Shown: piece after piece, positions 2,066 through 21,847 of the stretch | Numbering within the stretch: position 1 is the stretch's first letter | Layout of the letters: each line of letters begins with the position of its first letter | Origin: an uncultured Desulfurococcaceae archaeon | Lineage (GTDB): Archaea; Thermoproteota; Thermoprotei_A; Sulfolobales; Desulfurococcaceae | Assembly (NCBI GenBank): GCA_964542295.1 | Contig: CAZITZ010000001.1 | Coordinates: 11,724-39,820 of the forward strand | DNA length: 28,097 nt | Reading direction: 5' to 3' | Program-made: the position numbers and the translations under genes | Notes under the pieces: generated by a model | What the model saw: the letters and a program-made list of their open reading frames with translations, nothing else | What the model was told of the DNA's origin: nothing | Databases searched by the model: none

Positions 2066-2135
2066 GGATGATGAATGGGGACCTCCCATTATAGGGAGGA
2101 GCTCTGAACTGTGATGTGGGGCCAAAGCGCTGAAT
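2066..2135 (+). ncRNA. Box C/D sRNA with an elongated, hairpin-containing D' guide; the D guide fits tRNA-Gln(UUG) U34
   Basis: C ATGATGA 2068-2074; D' CTGA 2104-2107; C' GTGATGT 2111-2117; 12-nt guide GGGGCCAAAGCG; D CTGA 2130-2133. Confidence 0.8.
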
Positions 2136-2140
2136 AAAGT

Positions 2141-2197
2141 ATCCGATGAAGAATACGCCATCGGGTGATCCGTGAACGGTAGTCCGCTTCCGAGGAT
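2141..2197 (+). ncRNA. Box C/D sRNA, second of the tandem pair
   Basis: C ATGAAGA 2146-2152; 12-nt guide; D' GTGA 2165-2168; C' GTGAACG 2172-2178; 11-nt guide; D CCGA 2190-2193; terminal stem ATCC/GGAT. Confidence 0.75.
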
Positions 2198-8608: not shown

Positions 8609-9880
8609 TTATGGTATTAGCCTTGTTCGATCTCGTACAAATATTGTTGCAAGTCTTACATTCTCAAGACCTAGCATACTCATCATCAATCTTTCAACAC
8701 CTAGTCCGAAGCCTCCATGAGGAGGCATGCCATACTTAAATGCTTCTAGATAGAAACTAAAGTCTTTTGGATTAAGACCCTTAAGTTTAAGAGCTTCTAC
8801 GAGCTTTTCATATCGATGTTCACGTTGTCCACCACTGGCTATCTCAAGGCCTCTATAGTCAAGATCAAATTTCCGTGTATGATAGTTATCCTCTTCCCTC
8901 ATATAATAGAATCCAGTAGCAGGCCATGGAAAACCAACTATGAAGTATATGTTGTAGCCCTTCTCAGCCATTATCTCTCCTAGTTTCTTCTCAGCAGATT
9001 CGCTAAGATCTTCGCCTTCAGGGACCTCTATGCCCTCGCTTCTGAGTATATCAACGGCCTCTTCGAATTTTAGTCGCTTAAACGGTATTGTTAATGGATC
9101 AACATTTATACTAAGTATATCTAGTTCCTCTCTAGCCTCGGTGCGTACCTTATCAGCAATGTATTTAACAAGTTCTTCCAAAAGCCTCATAACATCTTCT
9201 TCGCTATGTATGAATCCCATTTCAGCATCTATTCCCCAAGATTCATTAAGATGGCGTGTAGTATTGAATTTCTCTGCCCTAAAATATGGCGTAATCTCAT
9301 AAACACGTGGAATACTAGACATAAGTATTTGTTTATAGAGTTGAGGACTTTGGCTAAGATAAGCTTTGTATTCGAAATACTGTATTGGGAAGAGTGTAGC
9401 GCCTCCCTCAGCGCCAGCTGCCACGATTTTGGGAGTATGTACTTCAAGGAATCCGTTTTCTTCAAAGAATTTTCTAGCACTACGGAGAATAACAGATCTT
9501 ATTCTAATGAGTGCTTTTTCAGCAGGATTCCTGATCAATAAGTATCTATACTTAATTCGTGTATCTAGTAATGTTGGTACTTTACCAACAGTATCAACGG
9601 GTAATGGCTCGAGAGGCTCTGCATATACCTTAATATTCTTTACAAGATATTCTATGCCCCTCTTACTCCTTTGTTCAGGTGCTATTTCTCCTTCAAAACA
9701 TATGGCTGTACCTATTGCTAGTTCTTTAGCTTTTTCATAAAGCTCAGGCTCTCGATTCTTCTTTAAGACTATAACAGCGGGTTTTACATGTTCTCCTATG
9801 CTTAATTCAATAATAATGACCCTGCCAACAGCTTTATGCCGTATAATCCATCCACATATACGTTTACTCAACATATACAC
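8609..9880 (-). CDS. aspS: Aspartyl-tRNA synthetase, archaeal type
   Basis: GATLF, YLSQSPQLYKQ, FRAE..NTTRHLNE and GMPPHGGFGLGVERL motifs. Confidence 0.93.
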   Translation of the reverse strand: MYMLSKRICGWIIRHKAVGRVIIIELSIGEHVKPAVIVLKKNREPELYEKAKELAIGTAICFEGEIAPEQRSKRGIEYLVKNIKVYAEPLEPLPVDTVGKVPTLLDTRIKYRYLLIRNPAEKALIRIRSVILRSARKFFEENGFLEVHTPKIVAAGAEGGATLFPIQYFEYKAYLSQSPQLYKQILMSSIPRVYEITPYFRAEKFNTTRHLNESWGIDAEMGFIHSEEDVMRLLEELVKYIADKVRTEAREELDILSINVDPLTIPFKRLKFEEAVDILRSEGIEVPEGEDLSESAEKKLGEIMAEKGYNIYFIVGFPWPATGFYYMREEDNYHTRKFDLDYRGLEIASGGQREHRYEKLVEALKLKGLNPKDFSFYLEAFKYGMPPHGGFGLGVERLMMSMLGLENVRLATIFVRDRTRLIP

Positions 9881-10002
9881 CTAGGCAAAACCAATATATA
9901 GTACGTAATAAAAGAATTATCCTTATCCATAACTAAAATAAACAATGATAATAATTAATAATCAATGCAGATGATTTATACATAGTCTAAAAGATTAAAC
10001 AA

Positions 10003-10016
10003 TTAAAGTATATAAG
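10003..10016 (+). promoter_or_regulatory. BRE-TATA promoter pointing into the BHB-flanked RNA
   Basis: TTAAAG followed by TATATAAG (10009-10016), about 25-30 nt upstream of G10041. Confidence 0.6.
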
Positions 10017-10040
10017 ACATAGAAGACAAAAATAAAGTAT

Positions 10041-10236
10041 GCAGCCAATCACTCGGAACCGCCAGCTACCCCGAAAGCCCGGGCAGTCCAGAACATGAGC
10101 ATTACAATGATTGTTTTGGGCAATGAAACGCCTGGGAAGAAAAACCACTAGCTGGTGGTTGCTCCCCTGGCAACGGGGGAGTGGGTTCTCCGGGGTGGCT
10201 TCGGGGACCCGGAGGCCCCCGAGTGGGCTAGAGCTA
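10041..10236 (+). ncRNA. Unassigned structured RNA closed by a bulge-helix-bulge motif; predicted 183-nt excised circle (10049-10231) with a K-loop/H-ACA-like hairpin
   Basis: 115 of 190 nt are G+C (10041-10230, counted) in an AT-rich genome; BHB AGCC-AAT / GGCT-AGA; closing stem CACTCGG/CCGAGTG; GCAA and C(UUCG)G tetraloop hairpins indicate the + strand. Confidence 0.8.
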
Positions 10237-12906
10237 TGGTATTTTCCTTGTTATCCTCTTCCTAAATTCTTCAACTATGATTATTACATGTGATATTAGT
10301 ATAATGTATATTAAGCTTTCTATGTCTAGAGGTACTGCACCCAATAGCCACGGTGCTATATAGATGGGTATTATTGCTAATGCTAATCCAGCTAAATAAC
10401 CCAATATATGATATTTGTTTGATAGTAATCCTATTTCTAATAAGCTCTTGTAGGGACTTCTCATATTATAACTATGGGCTAGCTCTCCTATGGATAATGT
10501 TAAGTATGTAGCAGTAGCTATTGCTAGTGGGGATAATGTATGACTCAAAGTCCATGAAAGAGCTGCCAGTACAAGTCCTATATAACCTATAAATACTAGT
10601 CCAGATTTTCCAAGCAGGGGCTTAATACTCCATGGCGGTCTCTTCAATATATCTGGTTCCGGGGGTTCTAGACCAAGTGTTATAGCAGGCACAGAATCCG
10701 TTACGAGGTTAATCCATAAGATCATTGCAGGAGTAAGTATAGCTTCTCTAAATAATCCTATTGAACCAAGAACTATAGTTACTTCAGCGATATTGGCAGA
10801 TAATAAGTATAATGTTGATTTACGTATGTTTTCATAACTAGTTCTACCATCTTCTATAGCTGCAACAATTGTAGCAAAATTATCATCTTCAAGAATAAGA
10901 TCACTAGCTTCACGTGCTACATCTGTTCCCCTTAGGCCCATGGCGACACCTACATCGGCAAGCTTTAATGCCGGAGCGTCATTAACTCCATCGCCCGTGA
11001 CAGCTACGACATGCCCTCTTTTCTTAAGGGCTTTTACAATACGTAGCTTATGTTCCGGCGAAACTCTTGCAAAGATAGCTGTATCTTCAACAATATTGTA
11101 TAGTTCTTCATCACTCATATTCTCTAATTCGCGTCCGGTAACTATTCTTTTACCCTCTAGTGATAACCCGATCATCTCAGCAATAGCTTTAGCTGTTATA
11201 GCATGATCACCTGTTACCATTATGACTTTTATACCTGCATCCAATGCTTTTCTAATAGCATCTGGTACTTCAGGTCTAGGTGGATCCAATAGACCTGTTA
11301 AACCTATAAATACTAAGTCCTTCTCGGAATCTTCATCACTAGGTATTTCATCAACAATTTTATATGCATACCCTAATACTCTAAGACCTTTAGAAGCCAT
11401 TTCTTCGGAAACGGCAATAATTTCATTGACATCATCCTCATCAATGCTTTTTAAATAATTGTTCCTGAGAATGTACTTGGATCTTGACATAATGACTTCA
11501 GGAGCTCCCTTACTATACACTATATACTTGTTCTTAGCCCTTACTATAACACTCATCATCTTTCTTTCACTTGAAAAAGGTATTTCCTTTATTCTCTGCA
11601 TAGTATTTCTTAATTTCACGTGATCGATCCCTGCCTTAGTACCGAATACTACTAATGCAGCTTCCATGGGATCGCCTATAGGTTTAGGCGGATTACTATT
11701 ATAGTCTACATCACTATTGTTACATAGTATGGAATCTTCTAAAAGTAGATCTATAGATTTGTTTTCGCCATAAATTATTTTCTTACCTTTATAGAGTATA
11801 GCACCTTCTTTAAGATAACCACTACCAGTGATATTTAAGTAGCCTAATCCAGGGATCCATGCCTTAATAACAGTCATTTCATTACGTGTAAGTGTACCAG
11901 TCTTATCAGTAGCTATAACTGTTACTTTTCCAAGGGTCTGTACTGCTCCAAGGCGGCGGACTAATGCATGTCTACGGGCCATACGTAAAACACTTAGTGC
12001 AAGGATCATAGTTAAGACAGCAGGTAACCCCTCAGGTACAGCTGCTACTGCTAAAGCTATACTAGTTAGCAATGCTTCGATAGGCGATGTTATATTTAAT
12101 ATTATGGAAAGGCTTAGGACAAGTAATGCTATGGCTATGATAACTCCTCCAAGTTGTTTAGCAAGCCGATCCATCTCCTTATGCAGTGTTGTTTTCTCTT
12201 CAAGACCTGAGGTTTCAGCTATCATCTGTGCTATACGACCAACTTCAGTCGCCATACCTGTTGCAACAACGACGGCTTTACCACTACCCCGTACAATGTA
12301 CGTGCCTGAAAAAACCATGTTTATACGGTCAGCAACTGGCGTATCTGGTTCAAGAACTACGTCAGCTTTCTTCATGACAGACTTGCTTTCACCAGTTAAT
12401 AGGGATTCATCAACATATAAATTTATAGCTTCAATAAGTCTTGCATCGGCTGTAACACGATCTCCTTCGGACAATACAAGTATATCTCCAGGTACAAGGT
12501 ATCTTGAATCAATCTCGACTAAAGTACCGTTTCGTATGACCTTAGCCTTAGGTACAACAAGTGATTTAAGCTTCTCAAGAGCTTTTTCTGCACGGTATTC
12601 TTGTATAACACCTGCTATAACCATTATAGCTATAATAGCCAATATACTTACTGCATCTTCTGTTTCACCTACTATTAAAGCTATTATTACAGCAGCAATT
12701 AAGAGTAACATGAATAAATTAACGATTTGTCCCAAAATGATTTTCCAAATACTTCTTTTACCTTTAGGCTCAATAATGTTTAATCCATATTTTCTTATTC
12801 TTTCTTCAACATCTTTATTACTAAGTCCTTGATCAGGATCAGTATTAAACTTCTCCAATACTTCTAAGATACTCACTGAGTGCCATTTTTCCTTCACACT
12901 AGGCAT
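10234..12906 (-). CDS. P-type ATPase, type IIA (Ca2+-transporting, SERCA-like)
   Basis: TGES, PEGLP, DKTGTLT, KGAPE, MVTGDH and GDGVNDAPAL motifs; membrane ligands NIAE, WINLVTD and a TM8 Glu. Confidence 0.93.
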   Translation of the reverse strand: MPSVKEKWHSVSILEVLEKFNTDPDQGLSNKDVEERIRKYGLNIIEPKGKRSIWKIILGQIVNLFMLLLIAAVIIALIVGETEDAVSILAIIAIMVIAGVIQEYRAEKALEKLKSLVVPKAKVIRNGTLVEIDSRYLVPGDILVLSEGDRVTADARLIEAINLYVDESLLTGESKSVMKKADVVLEPDTPVADRINMVFSGTYIVRGSGKAVVVATGMATEVGRIAQMIAETSGLEEKTTLHKEMDRLAKQLGGVIIAIALLVLSLSIILNITSPIEALLTSIALAVAAVPEGLPAVLTMILALSVLRMARRHALVRRLGAVQTLGKVTVIATDKTGTLTRNEMTVIKAWIPGLGYLNITGSGYLKEGAILYKGKKIIYGENKSIDLLLEDSILCNNSDVDYNSNPPKPIGDPMEAALVVFGTKAGIDHVKLRNTMQRIKEIPFSSERKMMSVIVRAKNKYIVYSKGAPEVIMSRSKYILRNNYLKSIDEDDVNEIIAVSEEMASKGLRVLGYAYKIVDEIPSDEDSEKDLVFIGLTGLLDPPRPEVPDAIRKALDAGIKVIMVTGDHAITAKAIAEMIGLSLEGKRIVTGRELENMSDEELYNIVEDTAIFARVSPEHKLRIVKALKKRGHVVAVTGDGVNDAPALKLADVGVAMGLRGTDVAREASDLILEDDNFATIVAAIEDGRTSYENIRKSTLYLLSANIAEVTIVLGSIGLFREAILTPAMILWINLVTDSVPAITLGLEPPEPDILKRPPWSIKPLLGKSGLVFIGYIGLVLAALSWTLSHTLSPLAIATATYLTLSIGELAHSYNMRSPYKSLLEIGLLSNKYHILGYLAGLALAIIPIYIAPWLLGAVPLDIESLIYIILISHVIIIVEEFRKRITRKIP

Positions 12907-18619: not shown

Positions 18620-19438
18620 GTGGGCATCGTTAAAACTGTATATGCATTATTGATCTTTGTAATATTATTTCTAGGAATTATGTGTATATCGGGTAATATC
18701 CTAGTCTTAAGTGGGGCAACTCAAGAATATGCTATTACAATAACTGGTAATTACACTATATTAGAAGCAGATTTTGAATTAATGAATATATCAATATTCA
18801 ATTACGTGTATATAGCACTTGATACATTAGATAAAGGAGCTGGTTATAGCTACGGTGTTATAATAATATGTGATCCCGATGAAAATACTCCTACATTGTA
18901 TCTCATGGCTGGCTCTGGAAATAGTTGGTATAGAATAATGAATGTGAACATCAAAGATAATGTAAGATTCTCTATATTAATAGATCATAATAATAAGACT
19001 ATATATTATATTATAAATGGTAAGTTAGGTAATATAAATAAATCAATGATTGTAATGCCGGAAGGTGTATCAATAATATTGAATTCTATAGGAAGAGAGT
19101 ATCCGCCTCCATCAATTAATTTGAAAAAGCTGATTGTCCTAGAAACAAATGATACTCATGTAGTAGATTATTTCCTTAAAGCTGATTTCAACAGAATATA
19201 TGAGATTTCTATTATAAGGCTTAATAAAACAAAAATTGAAATAACGCCTACTCAATCTCCTACAATTTCATCTCCTACAACATCACCTAGTTCAACAACT
19301 ATACAGCCTCCTGCACAAAGTCCTCCATACTTATCACCGACAATAGTAGCATTAATAATAGTAATATCTTCTATAACAACTATAATTGTTATATTAATTA
19401 TCACTCTGTCTCGAAGAAAAAGGTCCCCCGGTCCGTGA
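18620..19438 (+). CDS. Surface protein with signal peptide, Pro/Ser/Thr linker and C-terminal TM anchor
   Basis: Hydrophobic N-terminus; TPTQSPTISSPTTSPSS linker; TM followed by RRKR; six N-X-S/T sequons; GAGGT RBS. Confidence 0.8.
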   Translation: MGIVKTVYALLIFVILFLGIMCISGNILVLSGATQEYAITITGNYTILEADFELMNISIFNYVYIALDTLDKGAGYSYGVIIICDPDENTPTLYLMAGSGNSWYRIMNVNIKDNVRFSILIDHNNKTIYYIINGKLGNINKSMIVMPEGVSIILNSIGREYPPPSINLKKLIVLETNDTHVVDYFLKADFNRIYEISIIRLNKTKIEITPTQSPTISSPTTSPSSTTIQPPAQSPPYLSPTIVALIIVISSITTIIVILIITLSRRKRSPGP

Positions 19439-19495
19439 AGTAATCACACCCCTCCGGCGCTTAAGGGGTCATCTAGTAGAGGCCCCGGTCATCCC
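19422..19495 (-). ncRNA. C/D-like double K-turn sRNA with non-canonical covarying boxes
   Basis: C-like ATGACCG pairs with D-like GGGA; D' ATGA; spacer hairpin CCCCTT/GAGGGG with a TGT bulge; C' GTGATTA; two 13-nt guide-length segments; followed by TTTTT. Confidence 0.5.
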
Positions 19496-19567
19496 AATCT
19501 AGTGTTTTACAATTGTTCATTTTATTTCTTTCCAGATTCTGGCAAATATTTTAATAGTTTATTAATA

Positions 19568-21847
19568 CTAGGCTATTGGACTACCATATCTAGACTCAGC
19601 TGGTTTTTCATAAATACGGGTTTTACCACTAATGACTCTTCCCAATATATATAGAGCCTTCTTTCTAGACAAGATCTTGTTATTATTACCGCAATATGGA
19701 CTGTATATACATCTAGGACAACCATCATCGCATCTGCAGTCTTCCATAATTTTATATGCTAATTTCTCTGCCTTCTCAAAGCGATCGAATAAAAGACTTG
19801 CTAATCCACTGCCGCCCACGGCAGAATCATATATAACTATATCGCCACTAGGATAGCTAATTCCGCCTAAATCACCTAATCCTGCTCCACACACTGGTCT
19901 GGCGGCAGATATTATTGTATGTTCTATGGCATGAAATGCCTCTGCATTATCCATTAAATCCCATTCATTTCTGTATGGATATTTTAATAGTAGGGCTCTT
20001 GTTCTATAGGTATATACAACTGGTTTATCAAGATATTCAATAGCTGCAGGTCTATTACTTTCAAAAATACTATACACAGCATAGCCTTCAACATTAATTG
20101 ATATTGTTACCCTTGCATATGCTAGAGGTATTCCTCTAGTACTTATTCTTTCCCTAACAATACCATAGTCGATAAGATCAGTTGTATATAGAGGACGTGT
20201 ATACAATGGTGTATCGTCAGGCAATCTACGTACTCTGGCAATTCTCTTATCAGGATCAATCATTATACTTTGGTAAACTTTACCGCCATGTAAATAAATG
20301 GCATATGGATGGAGATCGAGAACTGCCATGGGCAATTCACGAAAACCAATTACCTTGTCATTTTCATCATGAATAGCCACTTGTGGTCCAGCACCACGGA
20401 TCGTCATATATTTAAAGAATTCTTTTCTAGCTCTTCTCCATACTGGGAAATAGCCTATAGGAATAGATACTGCAAAGCCTTCATCAACAACTTCATCAAA
20501 AGCCTTCTTCCAACTAATCCTTTTTGCAAGCTCCTTTCTAACCATACCCTGTTGTAAAAGTAATGCAAGTGCATGGATACGTAGAACTTCTTCATTACTA
20601 GGCTCTATGTAGATGGGTGGAATATCTTGTGTAAAATATTCTTCAGGATTCTTCTCATAATATGAATCAATAGGGTCGTCACCTAAGATCATGAAAACAT
20701 AGCCTGTTCTACCACGCCTACCAGCACGGCCGGCTCTTTGTATATATTTGGCATAGCTAGGAGGAGGTGCAACCATTACAACGGCATCGAGATAACCTAT
20801 ATCTATACCTAGTTCTAGAGTAGGTGTTGCAACAACACCATCGATCTCTCCTCGGGATAATTTAATCTCCACACTTCTTCTTTCCTCTGGTGTAAGACCA
20901 GCGCGGTGAACATGGAACTCTGCATTAAATCCTCTACGTATAATCCTTGCTATTACTTCTGCCATCTGCTGTGAATCTACAAAAACAAGTACTCTTAATC
21001 CAAGTCTAGATAGTAATGCTGCTACTGAGGCCGACACACTCCATCTAGAAAGATAACCTGCAGAGATCATAACATGATAAGCTATTCCTCTTCTCCAAAT
21101 AGGTCCACGAACGACTTTTACTTTCTCACCAAACAACATCTCTCCATGTTTCTCAGGGTTACCTATAGTGGCACTTGAGCCTATGAATACTAGATCTTTC
21201 CTACGAAAGATCTTTACTCTTTCAATAGTTGCTCTAACATGTGCTCCAAAAGCACCTTCATATGAATGCATTTCATCAAGTACTAAATAATCAATATTTC
21301 TAACCATTTTTCTGATTGCAGGGCTAAGTACTAGACCTACATGAATCATATCAGGGTTCGATATTAGTATATGAGGTGGATTAGAAGATATTTTCTTCCT
21401 TTCCTTTCTGGGTGTATCCCCGTCATATACAGCAGTTGTAACGTATCCAAACCCTGTAATCTCATTAATTCTTTTTAATTGATCTCGTGCAAGCGCTTTA
21501 GTTGGATATAATAATAATGAATTTGGATTTCTACTACTATTTATGCCTTTGGTTATTAACGGTATTAGGAAAGCCTCTGTCTTCCCAGTTCCTGTACCAG
21601 ATGCTATCACAGTATTATATCCATCAAGTATATATTTAATTGCTTCCCATTGAAACTTATACAATCTCTTAATGCCTTTTGATAAGAGATTATGTATTAG
21701 AAACTCAGGTATATCAAGGTCTTCTATAAACGGTCCCGGCTCTGGCTCTCCTATTTCCTCCTTTCTCATATGTATAATCTTAACTTGGTTTCCATATCGA
21801 TTAAGAAGTAGTTCATGGAATTCTCTAAGTATTGGATCGGTCTTCAA
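19568..21847 (-). CDS. DEAD/DEAH SF2 helicase with C-terminal DUF1998 (Hrq1/MrfA/SftH-like)
   Basis: SGTGTGKT, DEMH, SAT, ELGIDIG and QRAGRAGR motifs; HAIEH; CRCDDGCPRC. Confidence 0.92.
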   Translation of the reverse strand: MKTDPILREFHELLLNRYGNQVKIIHMRKEEIGEPEPGPFIEDLDIPEFLIHNLLSKGIKRLYKFQWEAIKYILDGYNTVIASGTGTGKTEAFLIPLITKGINSSRNPNSLLLYPTKALARDQLKRINEITGFGYVTTAVYDGDTPRKERKKISSNPPHILISNPDMIHVGLVLSPAIRKMVRNIDYLVLDEMHSYEGAFGAHVRATIERVKIFRRKDLVFIGSSATIGNPEKHGEMLFGEKVKVVRGPIWRRGIAYHVMISAGYLSRWSVSASVAALLSRLGLRVLVFVDSQQMAEVIARIIRRGFNAEFHVHRAGLTPEERRSVEIKLSRGEIDGVVATPTLELGIDIGYLDAVVMVAPPPSYAKYIQRAGRAGRRGRTGYVFMILGDDPIDSYYEKNPEEYFTQDIPPIYIEPSNEEVLRIHALALLLQQGMVRKELAKRISWKKAFDEVVDEGFAVSIPIGYFPVWRRARKEFFKYMTIRGAGPQVAIHDENDKVIGFRELPMAVLDLHPYAIYLHGGKVYQSIMIDPDKRIARVRRLPDDTPLYTRPLYTTDLIDYGIVRERISTRGIPLAYARVTISINVEGYAVYSIFESNRPAAIEYLDKPVVYTYRTRALLLKYPYRNEWDLMDNAEAFHAIEHTIISAARPVCGAGLGDLGGISYPSGDIVIYDSAVGGSGLASLLFDRFEKAEKLAYKIMEDCRCDDGCPRCIYSPYCGNNNKILSRKKALYILGRVISGKTRIYEKPAESRYGSPIA

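Follow-up and report, generated by a model that had tools for sequence, protein, structure and literature searches.

A hairpin at positions 10078-10140 of a 28,097-nucleotide (nt) chromosomal segment from an uncultured Desulfurococcaceae archaeon (assembly GCA_964542295.1, contig CAZITZ010000001.1; the window hereafter means this whole stretch) had been proposed in a first-pass annotation to be a circular H/ACA guide RNA or an L7Ae/Cbf5 scaffold. Our analysis favours a different identity, to which we assign a probability of about 65%: the hairpin is not a guide but the variable side arm of a larger RNA that folds into a double pseudoknot, is closed by a motif of the bulge-helix-bulge (BHB) type and is probably circular, with a kink-loop (K-loop) on the arm that would recruit L7Ae. 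Of the earlier proposal, an L7Ae scaffold inside a predicted circle stays plausible, and an H/ACA or Cbf5 guide is unsupported. The RNA defines a new, well-supported and apparently undescribed structured RNA family of the Desulfurococcaceae. Searching Rfam 15 with the whole window gave no match at the gathering score, the region 9850-10350 gave none at E up to 10, and nine homologous loci searched at E up to 1 returned nothing beyond chance sub-threshold matches; searches of the literature turned up no account of an RNA of this kind.

The hairpin sits within the only strongly G+C-rich island of the window, at about 10032-10262, between the genes for a class II aspartyl/asparaginyl-tRNA synthetase and a P-type ATPase (Table 1). 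Here a GC-rich RNA gene of about 200 nt runs on the + strand, divergently from the synthetase gene. The region 10040-10240 folds with z = -4.4 on the + strand, where 0 of 200 shuffles fold as well, and with z = -2.0 on the - strand; both stems of the hairpin are present in the minimum-free-energy (MFE) fold of the + strand. In the architecture that we propose, the hairpin is helix P3 plus a lineage-specific extension: P1 closes the molecule, P2 opens into an internal loop, P3 bears the variable arm and P4 is optional. The loop of P5 is complementary to both strands of the internal loop, its 5' half to the 3' strand and its 3' half to the 5' strand, in the window through GUGG (10195-98) with CCAC (10145-48), termed PKa, and UUCGGGG (10200-06) with CCCCGAA (10069-75), termed PKb. 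Pairing with both strands locks P2, P3 and P5 into a compact double pseudoknot, in which P2, P5 and the two pseudoknot helices make a four-way junction and a three-way junction joins the two pseudoknot helices with P3. What had been called the lower stem thus stands above the internal loop that is really conserved in this RNA, and that loop is filled in cis. P4 (10161-10182) carries a GNRA tetraloop (GCAA), for which a tetraloop-receptor contact with the variable arm is conceivable; in other clades P4 is missing or different.

Combining BLAST and nhmmer, a BHB descriptor and inspection of the regions upstream of the synthetase gene, we found 21 loci (designated by L numbers) that share the layout of the window RNA gene. 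We built a covariance model solely on the six closest sequences, and it recovered 18 full-length matches (E-values 1e-60 to 3e-3). Each of them is at a Desulfurococcaceae locus, upstream of and antisense to the aspartyl-tRNA synthetase gene; over 40-odd loci of other archaea the model gave none. In the window, the model scored 229.8 bits in the sense direction versus 20 in the antisense direction. An alignment of 15 members that was fitted to this model, and hence biased toward the structure, had 97.2% of its cells paired and double-sided changes in 43 of 57 pairs, compared with 22.9 +/- 2.5 after column shuffling (0 of 500 reaching the observed count) and at most 18 when the partners were slid. 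When the six closest sequences were aligned independently with MAFFT and both pseudoknots were counted, 95.1% of cells were paired and 16 pairs were double-sided versus 5.6 +/- 1.6, and both pseudoknot helices were supported in this count. Compensatory changes across the family affect six of the seven pairs of P1 and eight of the ten pairs of P2. Variants in vent populations likewise keep the structure, C10080T turning C-G into U-G, and T10156C and T10182C each turning G-U into G-C.

The double pseudoknot recurs in the same order in 17-18 of the 21 members with varied complementary sequences, and PKb is represented by more than ten different complementary pairs across the lineages. The two helices read GUGU/ACAC (compensatory) and UCCGGGGG/CCCCCGGA in L004, GGAGU/ACUCC and GCCUGGG/CCCGGGC in L005, GGGGG/CCCCC and ACCUGG/CCAGGU in L012, GGGU/ACCC and UGCGAGG/CCUCGCA in L013, AGGGU/ACCCU and GCCUGGCU/AGCCAGGC in L016, and GGGAU/AUCCC and CCUGGCA/UGCCAGG in L032.

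Three shorter RNAs (116-130 nt) at Thermogladius-type loci, all on the - strand (L018, 2810-2932; L020, 2818-2945; L034, 2804-2933), share the synteny, promoter spacing and BHB; they gave no covariance-model match, and their pseudoknot complementarity is weak or absent. These RNAs are probable members of the family and may represent a reduced form of it. Pattern searches added little to the set. The degenerate 5' pattern GCCARNCACYCRGNNCCGCYAGC, run across genomes, was swamped by chance matches in GC-rich bacteria and otherwise hit just four Desulfurococcaceae genomes already included, and a search for the exact 59-nt hairpin in one genome per species found no match. A metagenome scan with the pattern of the window clade recovered the four sequence types already in the set and one new variant of the asymmetric loop, or 'pocket', between the two stems of the hairpin, with no further variation in the K-loop.

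The RNA would be transcribed from its own TATA promoter as a stand-alone unit. A TATA element lies 25-27 nt upstream of the BHB helix in 21 of 21 homologous loci, and the usual archaeal spacing from TATA to start implies that transcription of the window RNA begins about 3-5 nt upstream of 10043. Downstream, a T-rich tract is found at the same place in most homologues. As for the BHB itself, its definition, the canonical cut rule and the relaxed HBh' form accepted by crenarchaeal endonucleases have been described (PMC4090602). In the window, AGCC and GGCU form a 4-bp central helix with 3-nt bulges on opposite strands, and the inner flanking helix is the 7-bp P1. This 3-4-3 geometry is kept in all family members, and the central helix is paired in 15 of 15 rows aligned to the covariance model, where it shows one-sided changes only. 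With each cut placed after the second bulge nucleotide, we infer an excised RNA of 183 nt, from U10049 to G10231. The tRNA-splicing endonuclease would cut both bulges and RtcB would join the ends into a circle, in which P1 would be capped by the 7-nt loop GGCUAGU.

Translation of this region was considered and rejected. Two short open reading frames (ORFs), 9987-10148 (-) and 10111-10293 (+), fail as coding candidates, as does an ATG at 10039: homologues do not conserve the ATG, their insertions and deletions do not come in multiples of three, and within helices the substitutions compensate one another. Nor does the circle length of 183 nt (3 x 61) signal rolling translation, as other members measure 116-184 nt with no multiple-of-three pattern.

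At the level of pairing, the hairpin is as the first-pass annotation had drawn it. The lower stem is the 7-bp P3 (C10078-C10084/G10130-G10136, including one G-U), and the upper stem comprises 10 bp (G10086-A10095/U10112-C10121, including two G-U); these are followed by the U.U and the two sheared G.A pairs, and an AGA triplet stands at 10138-10140, with 16 nt between it and C10121. The compensatory A-U that had been noted at the K-loop closure also holds, being A10095-U10112 directly below the U.U in the window and G-C in the diverged homologue L003. K-loops and kink-turns (K-turns) of the L7Ae type have tandem sheared G.A pairs beside a helix and three unpaired nucleotides preceding them on one strand, a role that A10106-A10107-U10108 can fill ahead of the 3' GA. 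The arrangement is of the D'/C' type in the window lineage (AUGA ... UGAUU). A descriptor that demanded UGA...GAU on top of a stem of 9 bp or more matched once over the two strands of the window, at this hairpin, compared with a mean of 0.045 matches in 200 dinucleotide shuffles. Among four near-identical sequence types that differ at 20 of 205 positions, 0 of the 36 sites of the upper stem and K-loop vary (P about 0.02-0.03), and four variants seen on vent-metagenome contigs either preserve the structure or lie in the pocket, with zero in the K-loop. L003 keeps the UGA/GAU motif, and it differs both at the closing pair and at neighbouring pairs. The sequence is compatible with a K-loop, which is not to say that it demonstrates one.

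The arm is the most variable part of the family, ranging from 24 to 45 nt with unrelated sequences. In the window clade, including L003, a K-loop sits at the apex, and its G.A stem is the core-proximal one. Box C/D-like K-turns (for example AAUGAUG.../...CAGA) occur in L005/L035, in L012/L008/L010/L015 and in L032, at 8-9 bp above the conserved internal loop and in the opposite orientation, with the canonical stem facing the core. L004, L006, L007 and L024 have degenerate versions of the motif, and inspection of the arms of L013, L014, L016 and the Thermogladius-type loci revealed no recognisable K-motif. That the motif comes and goes, shifts and flips on a single arm is in keeping with L7Ae serving a generic architectural or stabilising function; it does not fit a protein that needs a precise position relative to a catalytic partner. 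L7Ae has architectural and stabilising roles on many RNAs of hyperthermophilic archaea. We think it somewhat more probable than not that L7Ae binds the window K-loop at all. Since K-turns in relatives stand at other positions and orientations or are missing, any such role would probably be architectural, and recruitment of L7Ae as an architectural or stabilising protein is the likeliest function that we can suggest for the K-loop.

Several points weigh against this assignment. In the MFE fold, a mini-hairpin of three Watson-Crick pairs (C10100-U10102/A10107-G10109) takes the place of the G.A pairs at the apex, and the diverged L003 is the sole independent evolutionary support for the K-loop. 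The K-motifs of the other clades were judged by eye. Several family members have no K-turn whatsoever; therefore, L7Ae binding cannot be essential to the function of the family. The outer helix of the BHB has no more than 2 bp (G10041-C10042 with G10233-C10234), and several homologues lack it, which leaves the relaxed HBh' form in place of the strict hBHBh' one with its helices on either side; the proximity of the inferred transcription start would explain why this helix is so short. Finally, besides the structural bias of the 15-member pair counts, all sequences come from metagenome-assembled genomes of one family.

The first of these points bears on a rival explanation, according to which the apex is an ordinary Watson-Crick hairpin, the UGA/GAU motif is coincidental, no protein binds and the arm is a structural spacer. 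Consistent with it, the nucleotides that form the mini-hairpin in the window MFE fold can form a 5-bp Watson-Crick helix in L003, and about one-third of the lineages (L013, L014, L016 and the Thermogladius-type loci) are without a K-motif in the arm. However, the descriptor match is rare by chance (0.045 expected, one found), the loop is as strictly conserved as the stem, L003 retains UGA/GAU while neighbouring pairs change, and three other clades have clear box C/D-type K-turns in the homologous arm. We therefore regard a spacer with no K-loop as unlikely.

The asymmetric loop between P3 and the upper stem had been interpreted as the pocket of a one-sided pseudouridine guide. Under that explanation, L7Ae, Nop10, Cbf5 and Gar1 would assemble on an H/ACA-like hairpin, or Cbf5 on a scaffold, and AAUGAAAC would recognise, by base pairing, a target that adjoins a U. 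The hairpin does offer a K-loop on a 10-bp Watson-Crick stem, a 7-bp lower stem and an AGA 16 nt from the closing pair, and atypical H/ACA RNAs exist in Crenarchaeota (PMC11077068); GA stems in Pyrobaculum were first reported to range from 8 to 13 (PMC4652768). Productive archaeal guides are more restricted. Counted from the pocket-closing pair through the second G.A pair, they stack ten layers (8-11 in natural examples); the 5' guide measures 5-8 nt, the 3' guide 5-6 nt (up to 8) and the lower stem 7-9 bp, with the ANA box 14-16 nt from the closing pair and 14-15 nt in productive guides; in the unified model, any departure from ten GA-stem layers is deleterious (PMC4652768). By that published definition, the GA stem of the hairpin has 13 layers, namely ten Watson-Crick or G-U pairs, the U.U and two G.A pairs; the agreement with a 9-10 bp spacing seen in the first-pass annotation came from counting Watson-Crick pairs only. 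The pocket is also not bipartite, with 1 nt (A10085) on the 5' side and 8 nt on the 3' side.

Conservation argues against a guide as well. Four of the eight sites of the putative 3' guide vary among the four near-identical sequence types (P = 0.004), which read AAUGAAAC, AAUGAAGU, GAUGAAGU and AAUGAUAU. AAUGAAAU is a population variant, and all of these versions occur among relatives of about 94% identity; C10129T is seen within this stretch in vent metagenomes, L003 has the unrelated, self-pairing GUGCAAAGCAC, and more distant homologues have no comparable asymmetric loop. Being the least conserved part, this stretch is unlike a guide for conserved rRNA or tRNA, which should be the most conserved. 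The AGA triplet is internal, in a linker (10137-44) that leads straight to the pseudoknot strand CCAC and P2 and is not a free 3' tail; L002 has AUA, and in L003 the register is gone (AAG). The likeness to single-sided Pyrobaculum guides did not hold either, in that those lack a lower stem and have free guide strands, whereas the loop here is closed by the 7-bp P3, a helix conserved across the family, and embedded between pseudoknot strands. The predicted target, GUUUCAUU followed by U, occurs once in the window, which equals the chance level for a search that covered this stretch, and no Rfam H/ACA family matched. We therefore reject membership of the hairpin in the H/ACA family and consider an H/ACA-like guide or Cbf5 scaffold very unlikely. 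Sulfolobus islandicus sR666, a K-turn hairpin without guide strands, binds L7Ae and Cbf5-Nop10 (PMC11077068), and by analogy Cbf5 might still associate with the window hairpin for some unspecified purpose.

The loop formed by A10085 and AAUGAAAC is a hinge under little constraint rather than a pocket for pseudouridylation. Within it, the first five nucleotides (10122-10126; R-A-U-G-A) are kept in the homologues L001, L002 and L203 and the following three drift. In L032 the word AAUGAAAC is found again, as the box-C-like strand of a K-turn on the other strand of the arm. A regular K-turn from the window's copy of this word was attempted and could not be built; one from AAUGA in the asymmetric loop was rejected on the grounds that the opposite strand is C-A and not G-A and that P3 would break.

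A related idea is that the whole RNA derives from an H/ACA RNA, with the internal loop between P2 and P3 as the pseudouridylation pocket and the P5 loop as a permanent pseudo-substrate in cis. Its topology does resemble that of a guide with its substrate, 1-3 nt being unpaired at the three-way junction with P3; P2, at 8-10 bp, resembles an H/ACA lower stem, and K-turns stand 8-9 bp above the loop in several clades. Those K-turns, however, are reversed relative to H/ACA, such that the canonical stem and not the G.A stem faces the loop, and the K-loop of the window is about 20 layers away from the conserved internal loop. No clade has an ANA after P2, and in place of a conserved U the unpaired positions hold C, CA, A, CG, U, AAU or UAA. 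Such a derivation is highly improbable. We give next to no credence to the hairpin being the C'/D' part of a box C/D methylation guide, despite the resemblance of AUGA ... UGAUUG to a D'/C' K-loop and the presence of box C/D small RNA (sRNA) candidates elsewhere in the window, because terminal C and D boxes were not found and, instead of single-stranded guides of 10-12 nt, the flanks are paired in a 10-bp stem that co-varies in L003. RNase P, signal recognition particle (SRP), 5S and tRNA-like RNAs, including circularly permuted forms, were rejected on size, on helix order and because not even a partial Rfam match was obtained.

Table 1. Elements of the RNA gene and its two neighbouring genes in the window. 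P, paired helix; IL, internal loop; PK, pseudoknot; BRE, B recognition element.
Feature	Position	Strand	Details
Class II aspartyl/asparaginyl-tRNA synthetase gene	8609-9880	-	
BRE/TATA-like promoter element AAAGTATATAAG	10005-10016	+	ends 26 nt before BHB central helix
BHB 5' half	10043-10049	+	central-helix strand AGCC 10043-46, 3-nt bulge AAU 10047-49; predicted cut after A10048
P1 5' strand CACUCGG	10050-10056	+	pairs with 10219-10225, 7 bp
P2 5' strand CCGCCAGCUA	10059-10068	+	pairs with 10149-10158
Internal loop 5' strand (IL5)	10069-10077	+	CCCCGAA 10069-10075 in PKb with 10200-10206
P3 5' strand CCCGGGC (former 'lower stem')	10078-10084	+	pairs with 10130-10136; population variant C10080T gives U-G
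Asymmetric loop ('pocket'), 5' side	10085	+	unpaired single A
Upper stem and K-loop	10086-10121	+	U10096.U10111, G10097.A10110, A10098.G10109; loop 10099-10108
Asymmetric loop, 3' side AAUGAAAC	10122-10129	+	hypervariable; formerly a one-sided guide
P3 3' strand GCCUGGG	10130-10136	+	pairs with 10078-10084; MFE fold and covariation
Internal loop 3' strand (IL3)	10137-10148	+	A-rich linker including AGA 10138-40, then CCAC 10145-48; CCAC in PKa with 10195-10198
P2 3' strand UAGCUGGUGG	10149-10158	+	
P4 hairpin	10161-10182	+	9 bp, GCAA tetraloop; absent in some family members
P5 hairpin	10183-10218	+	loop 10195-10207 GUGGCUUCGGGGA; segment a 10195-98 pairs with IL3, segment b 10200-06 with IL5
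P1 3' strand and BHB 3' half	10219-10232	+	P1 strand CCGAGUG 10219-25, BHB strand GGCU 10226-29, 3-nt bulge AGA 10230-32; predicted cut after G10231
P-type ATPase gene	10234-12906	-	
T-rich tract TATTTTCCTTGTT	10240-10252	+	likely archaeal terminator

Regarding its surroundings, the window comes from an AT-rich archaeon of about 35% G+C and also contains genes for the primase large subunit, NMD3 and adenylate kinase, and none for L7Ae, Cbf5 or splicing; ARAGORN found no tRNA or tmRNA. Its synthetase shares 96% identity with the enzyme of an uncultured Desulfurococcaceae genome and 70-84% with its counterparts in further members, among them Staphylothermus, Thermogladius and Desulfurococcus. 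Hydrothermal-vent metagenomes contain the exact sequence of the region, and sequencing runs of one cultured relative share about 26% of its 31-mers. At other Desulfurococcaceae loci (L019, L022, L023, L025-L029, L031 and L036) a tRNA gene occupies the slot about 100-300 nt upstream of the synthetase match, on the synthetase strand, and a long helix of leader and trailer encloses it; in L028 this tRNA gene has an insert of about 250 nt. In the Desulfurococcus-type locus L016, the RNA is followed after about 110 nt by a tRNA gene on its own strand (2550-2623, -), and the two might be co-transcribed.

Elsewhere in the window, the stretch between a PF0610-like ORF and the primase large-subunit gene contains two box C/D sRNA candidates in tandem. 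The candidate at 2066-2133 (+) has the boxes C AUGAUGA, D' CUGA, C' UGAUGU and D CUGA, and the one at 2143-2195 (+) has variant boxes GAUGAAGA ... CCGA; neither was called by Rfam. A second G+C-rich intergenic island (19401-19506), between an ORF at 18620-19438 (+) and a DEAD-box/MZB helicase gene (19568-21847, -), has little predicted structure, with z above 0 on either strand. Its - strand contains UGAUGA- and GUGA-like boxes, suggesting another C/D-type sRNA.

As an H/ACA guide, the hairpin would have been merely one more modification guide; a conserved, co-varying RNA outside Rfam 15 is of greater interest. It also illustrates that H/ACA rules applied to an isolated hairpin can mislead when no account is taken of the fold around it. 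Should the circle be confirmed, a stand-alone structured RNA would join the short list of BHB-matured RNAs, which comprises tRNA introns, rRNA precursors and permuted SRP RNA, and would bring with it a compact new pseudoknot fold from organisms growing near 90 degrees C and a natural case of L7Ae sites gained, moved and lost on one RNA scaffold. A broader proposal, which we put forward tentatively and at slightly less than even odds, is that of a stand-alone 'intron-only' gene whose sole product is a BHB-excised circular RNA with an undescribed double-pseudoknot core, its four-way and three-way junctions held together by one hairpin loop. Such RNAs would constitute a novel class among archaeal structured RNAs or ribonucleoprotein scaffolds, with the variable arms, for instance the K-loop arm of the window, as lineage-specific protein-binding modules. 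In a stronger version of this proposal, the core would be an H/ACA pocket that a pseudo-substrate plugs in cis.

Compared with known systems, the hairpin resembles canonical archaeal box H/ACA sRNAs (Pyrococcus, Archaeoglobus and Haloferax; sR115 and sR435 of Sulfolobus) in its lower stem, internal loop, upper stem capped by a K-turn or K-loop and ANA 16 nt downstream. It differs from them in having 13 and not ten layers, a 1-nt 5' guide, a hypervariable 3' guide, an internal ANA whose register is not conserved and a pseudoknotted host RNA. The atypical H/ACA-like sRNAs of Pyrobaculum and S. islandicus (PMC4652768, PMC11077068) are likewise crenarchaeal K-turn hairpins off the canonical H/ACA layout; these lack a lower stem and have free, conserved guides complementary to rRNA or tRNA, whereas the loop in the window is closed by a conserved helix and its sequence drifts freely. 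Compared by description, S. islandicus sR666 (PMC11077068) is also a K-turn hairpin without usable guide strands; it was shown to bind L7Ae and Cbf5-Nop10. The known RNAs closest in kind to the window RNA are the circular permuted SRP RNA of Thermoproteus and the tRNA-Trp intron that carries a box C/D sRNA. The SRP RNA (PMC4731332) likewise has a dedicated non-coding RNA gene with transcript ends that form a BHB, but it is recognisable as a rearranged SRP RNA, whereas the window RNA has a different, smaller fold and no family match. The tRNA-Trp intron is another BHB-excised, typically circular structured RNA with L7Ae K-turn or K-loop sites, features that are predicted for the window RNA; it is, however, an intron within a tRNA gene and a methylation guide, whereas the window RNA would come from a stand-alone gene with 'exons' of a few leader and trailer nucleotides and has no C/D guide architecture. 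In archaeal RNase P RNA and rRNA, K-turns of peripheral helices bind L7Ae in an architectural, thermostabilising capacity. The arm in the window, with its predicted L7Ae binding, is similarly a peripheral helix with a K-turn-type motif, set in a different host RNA.

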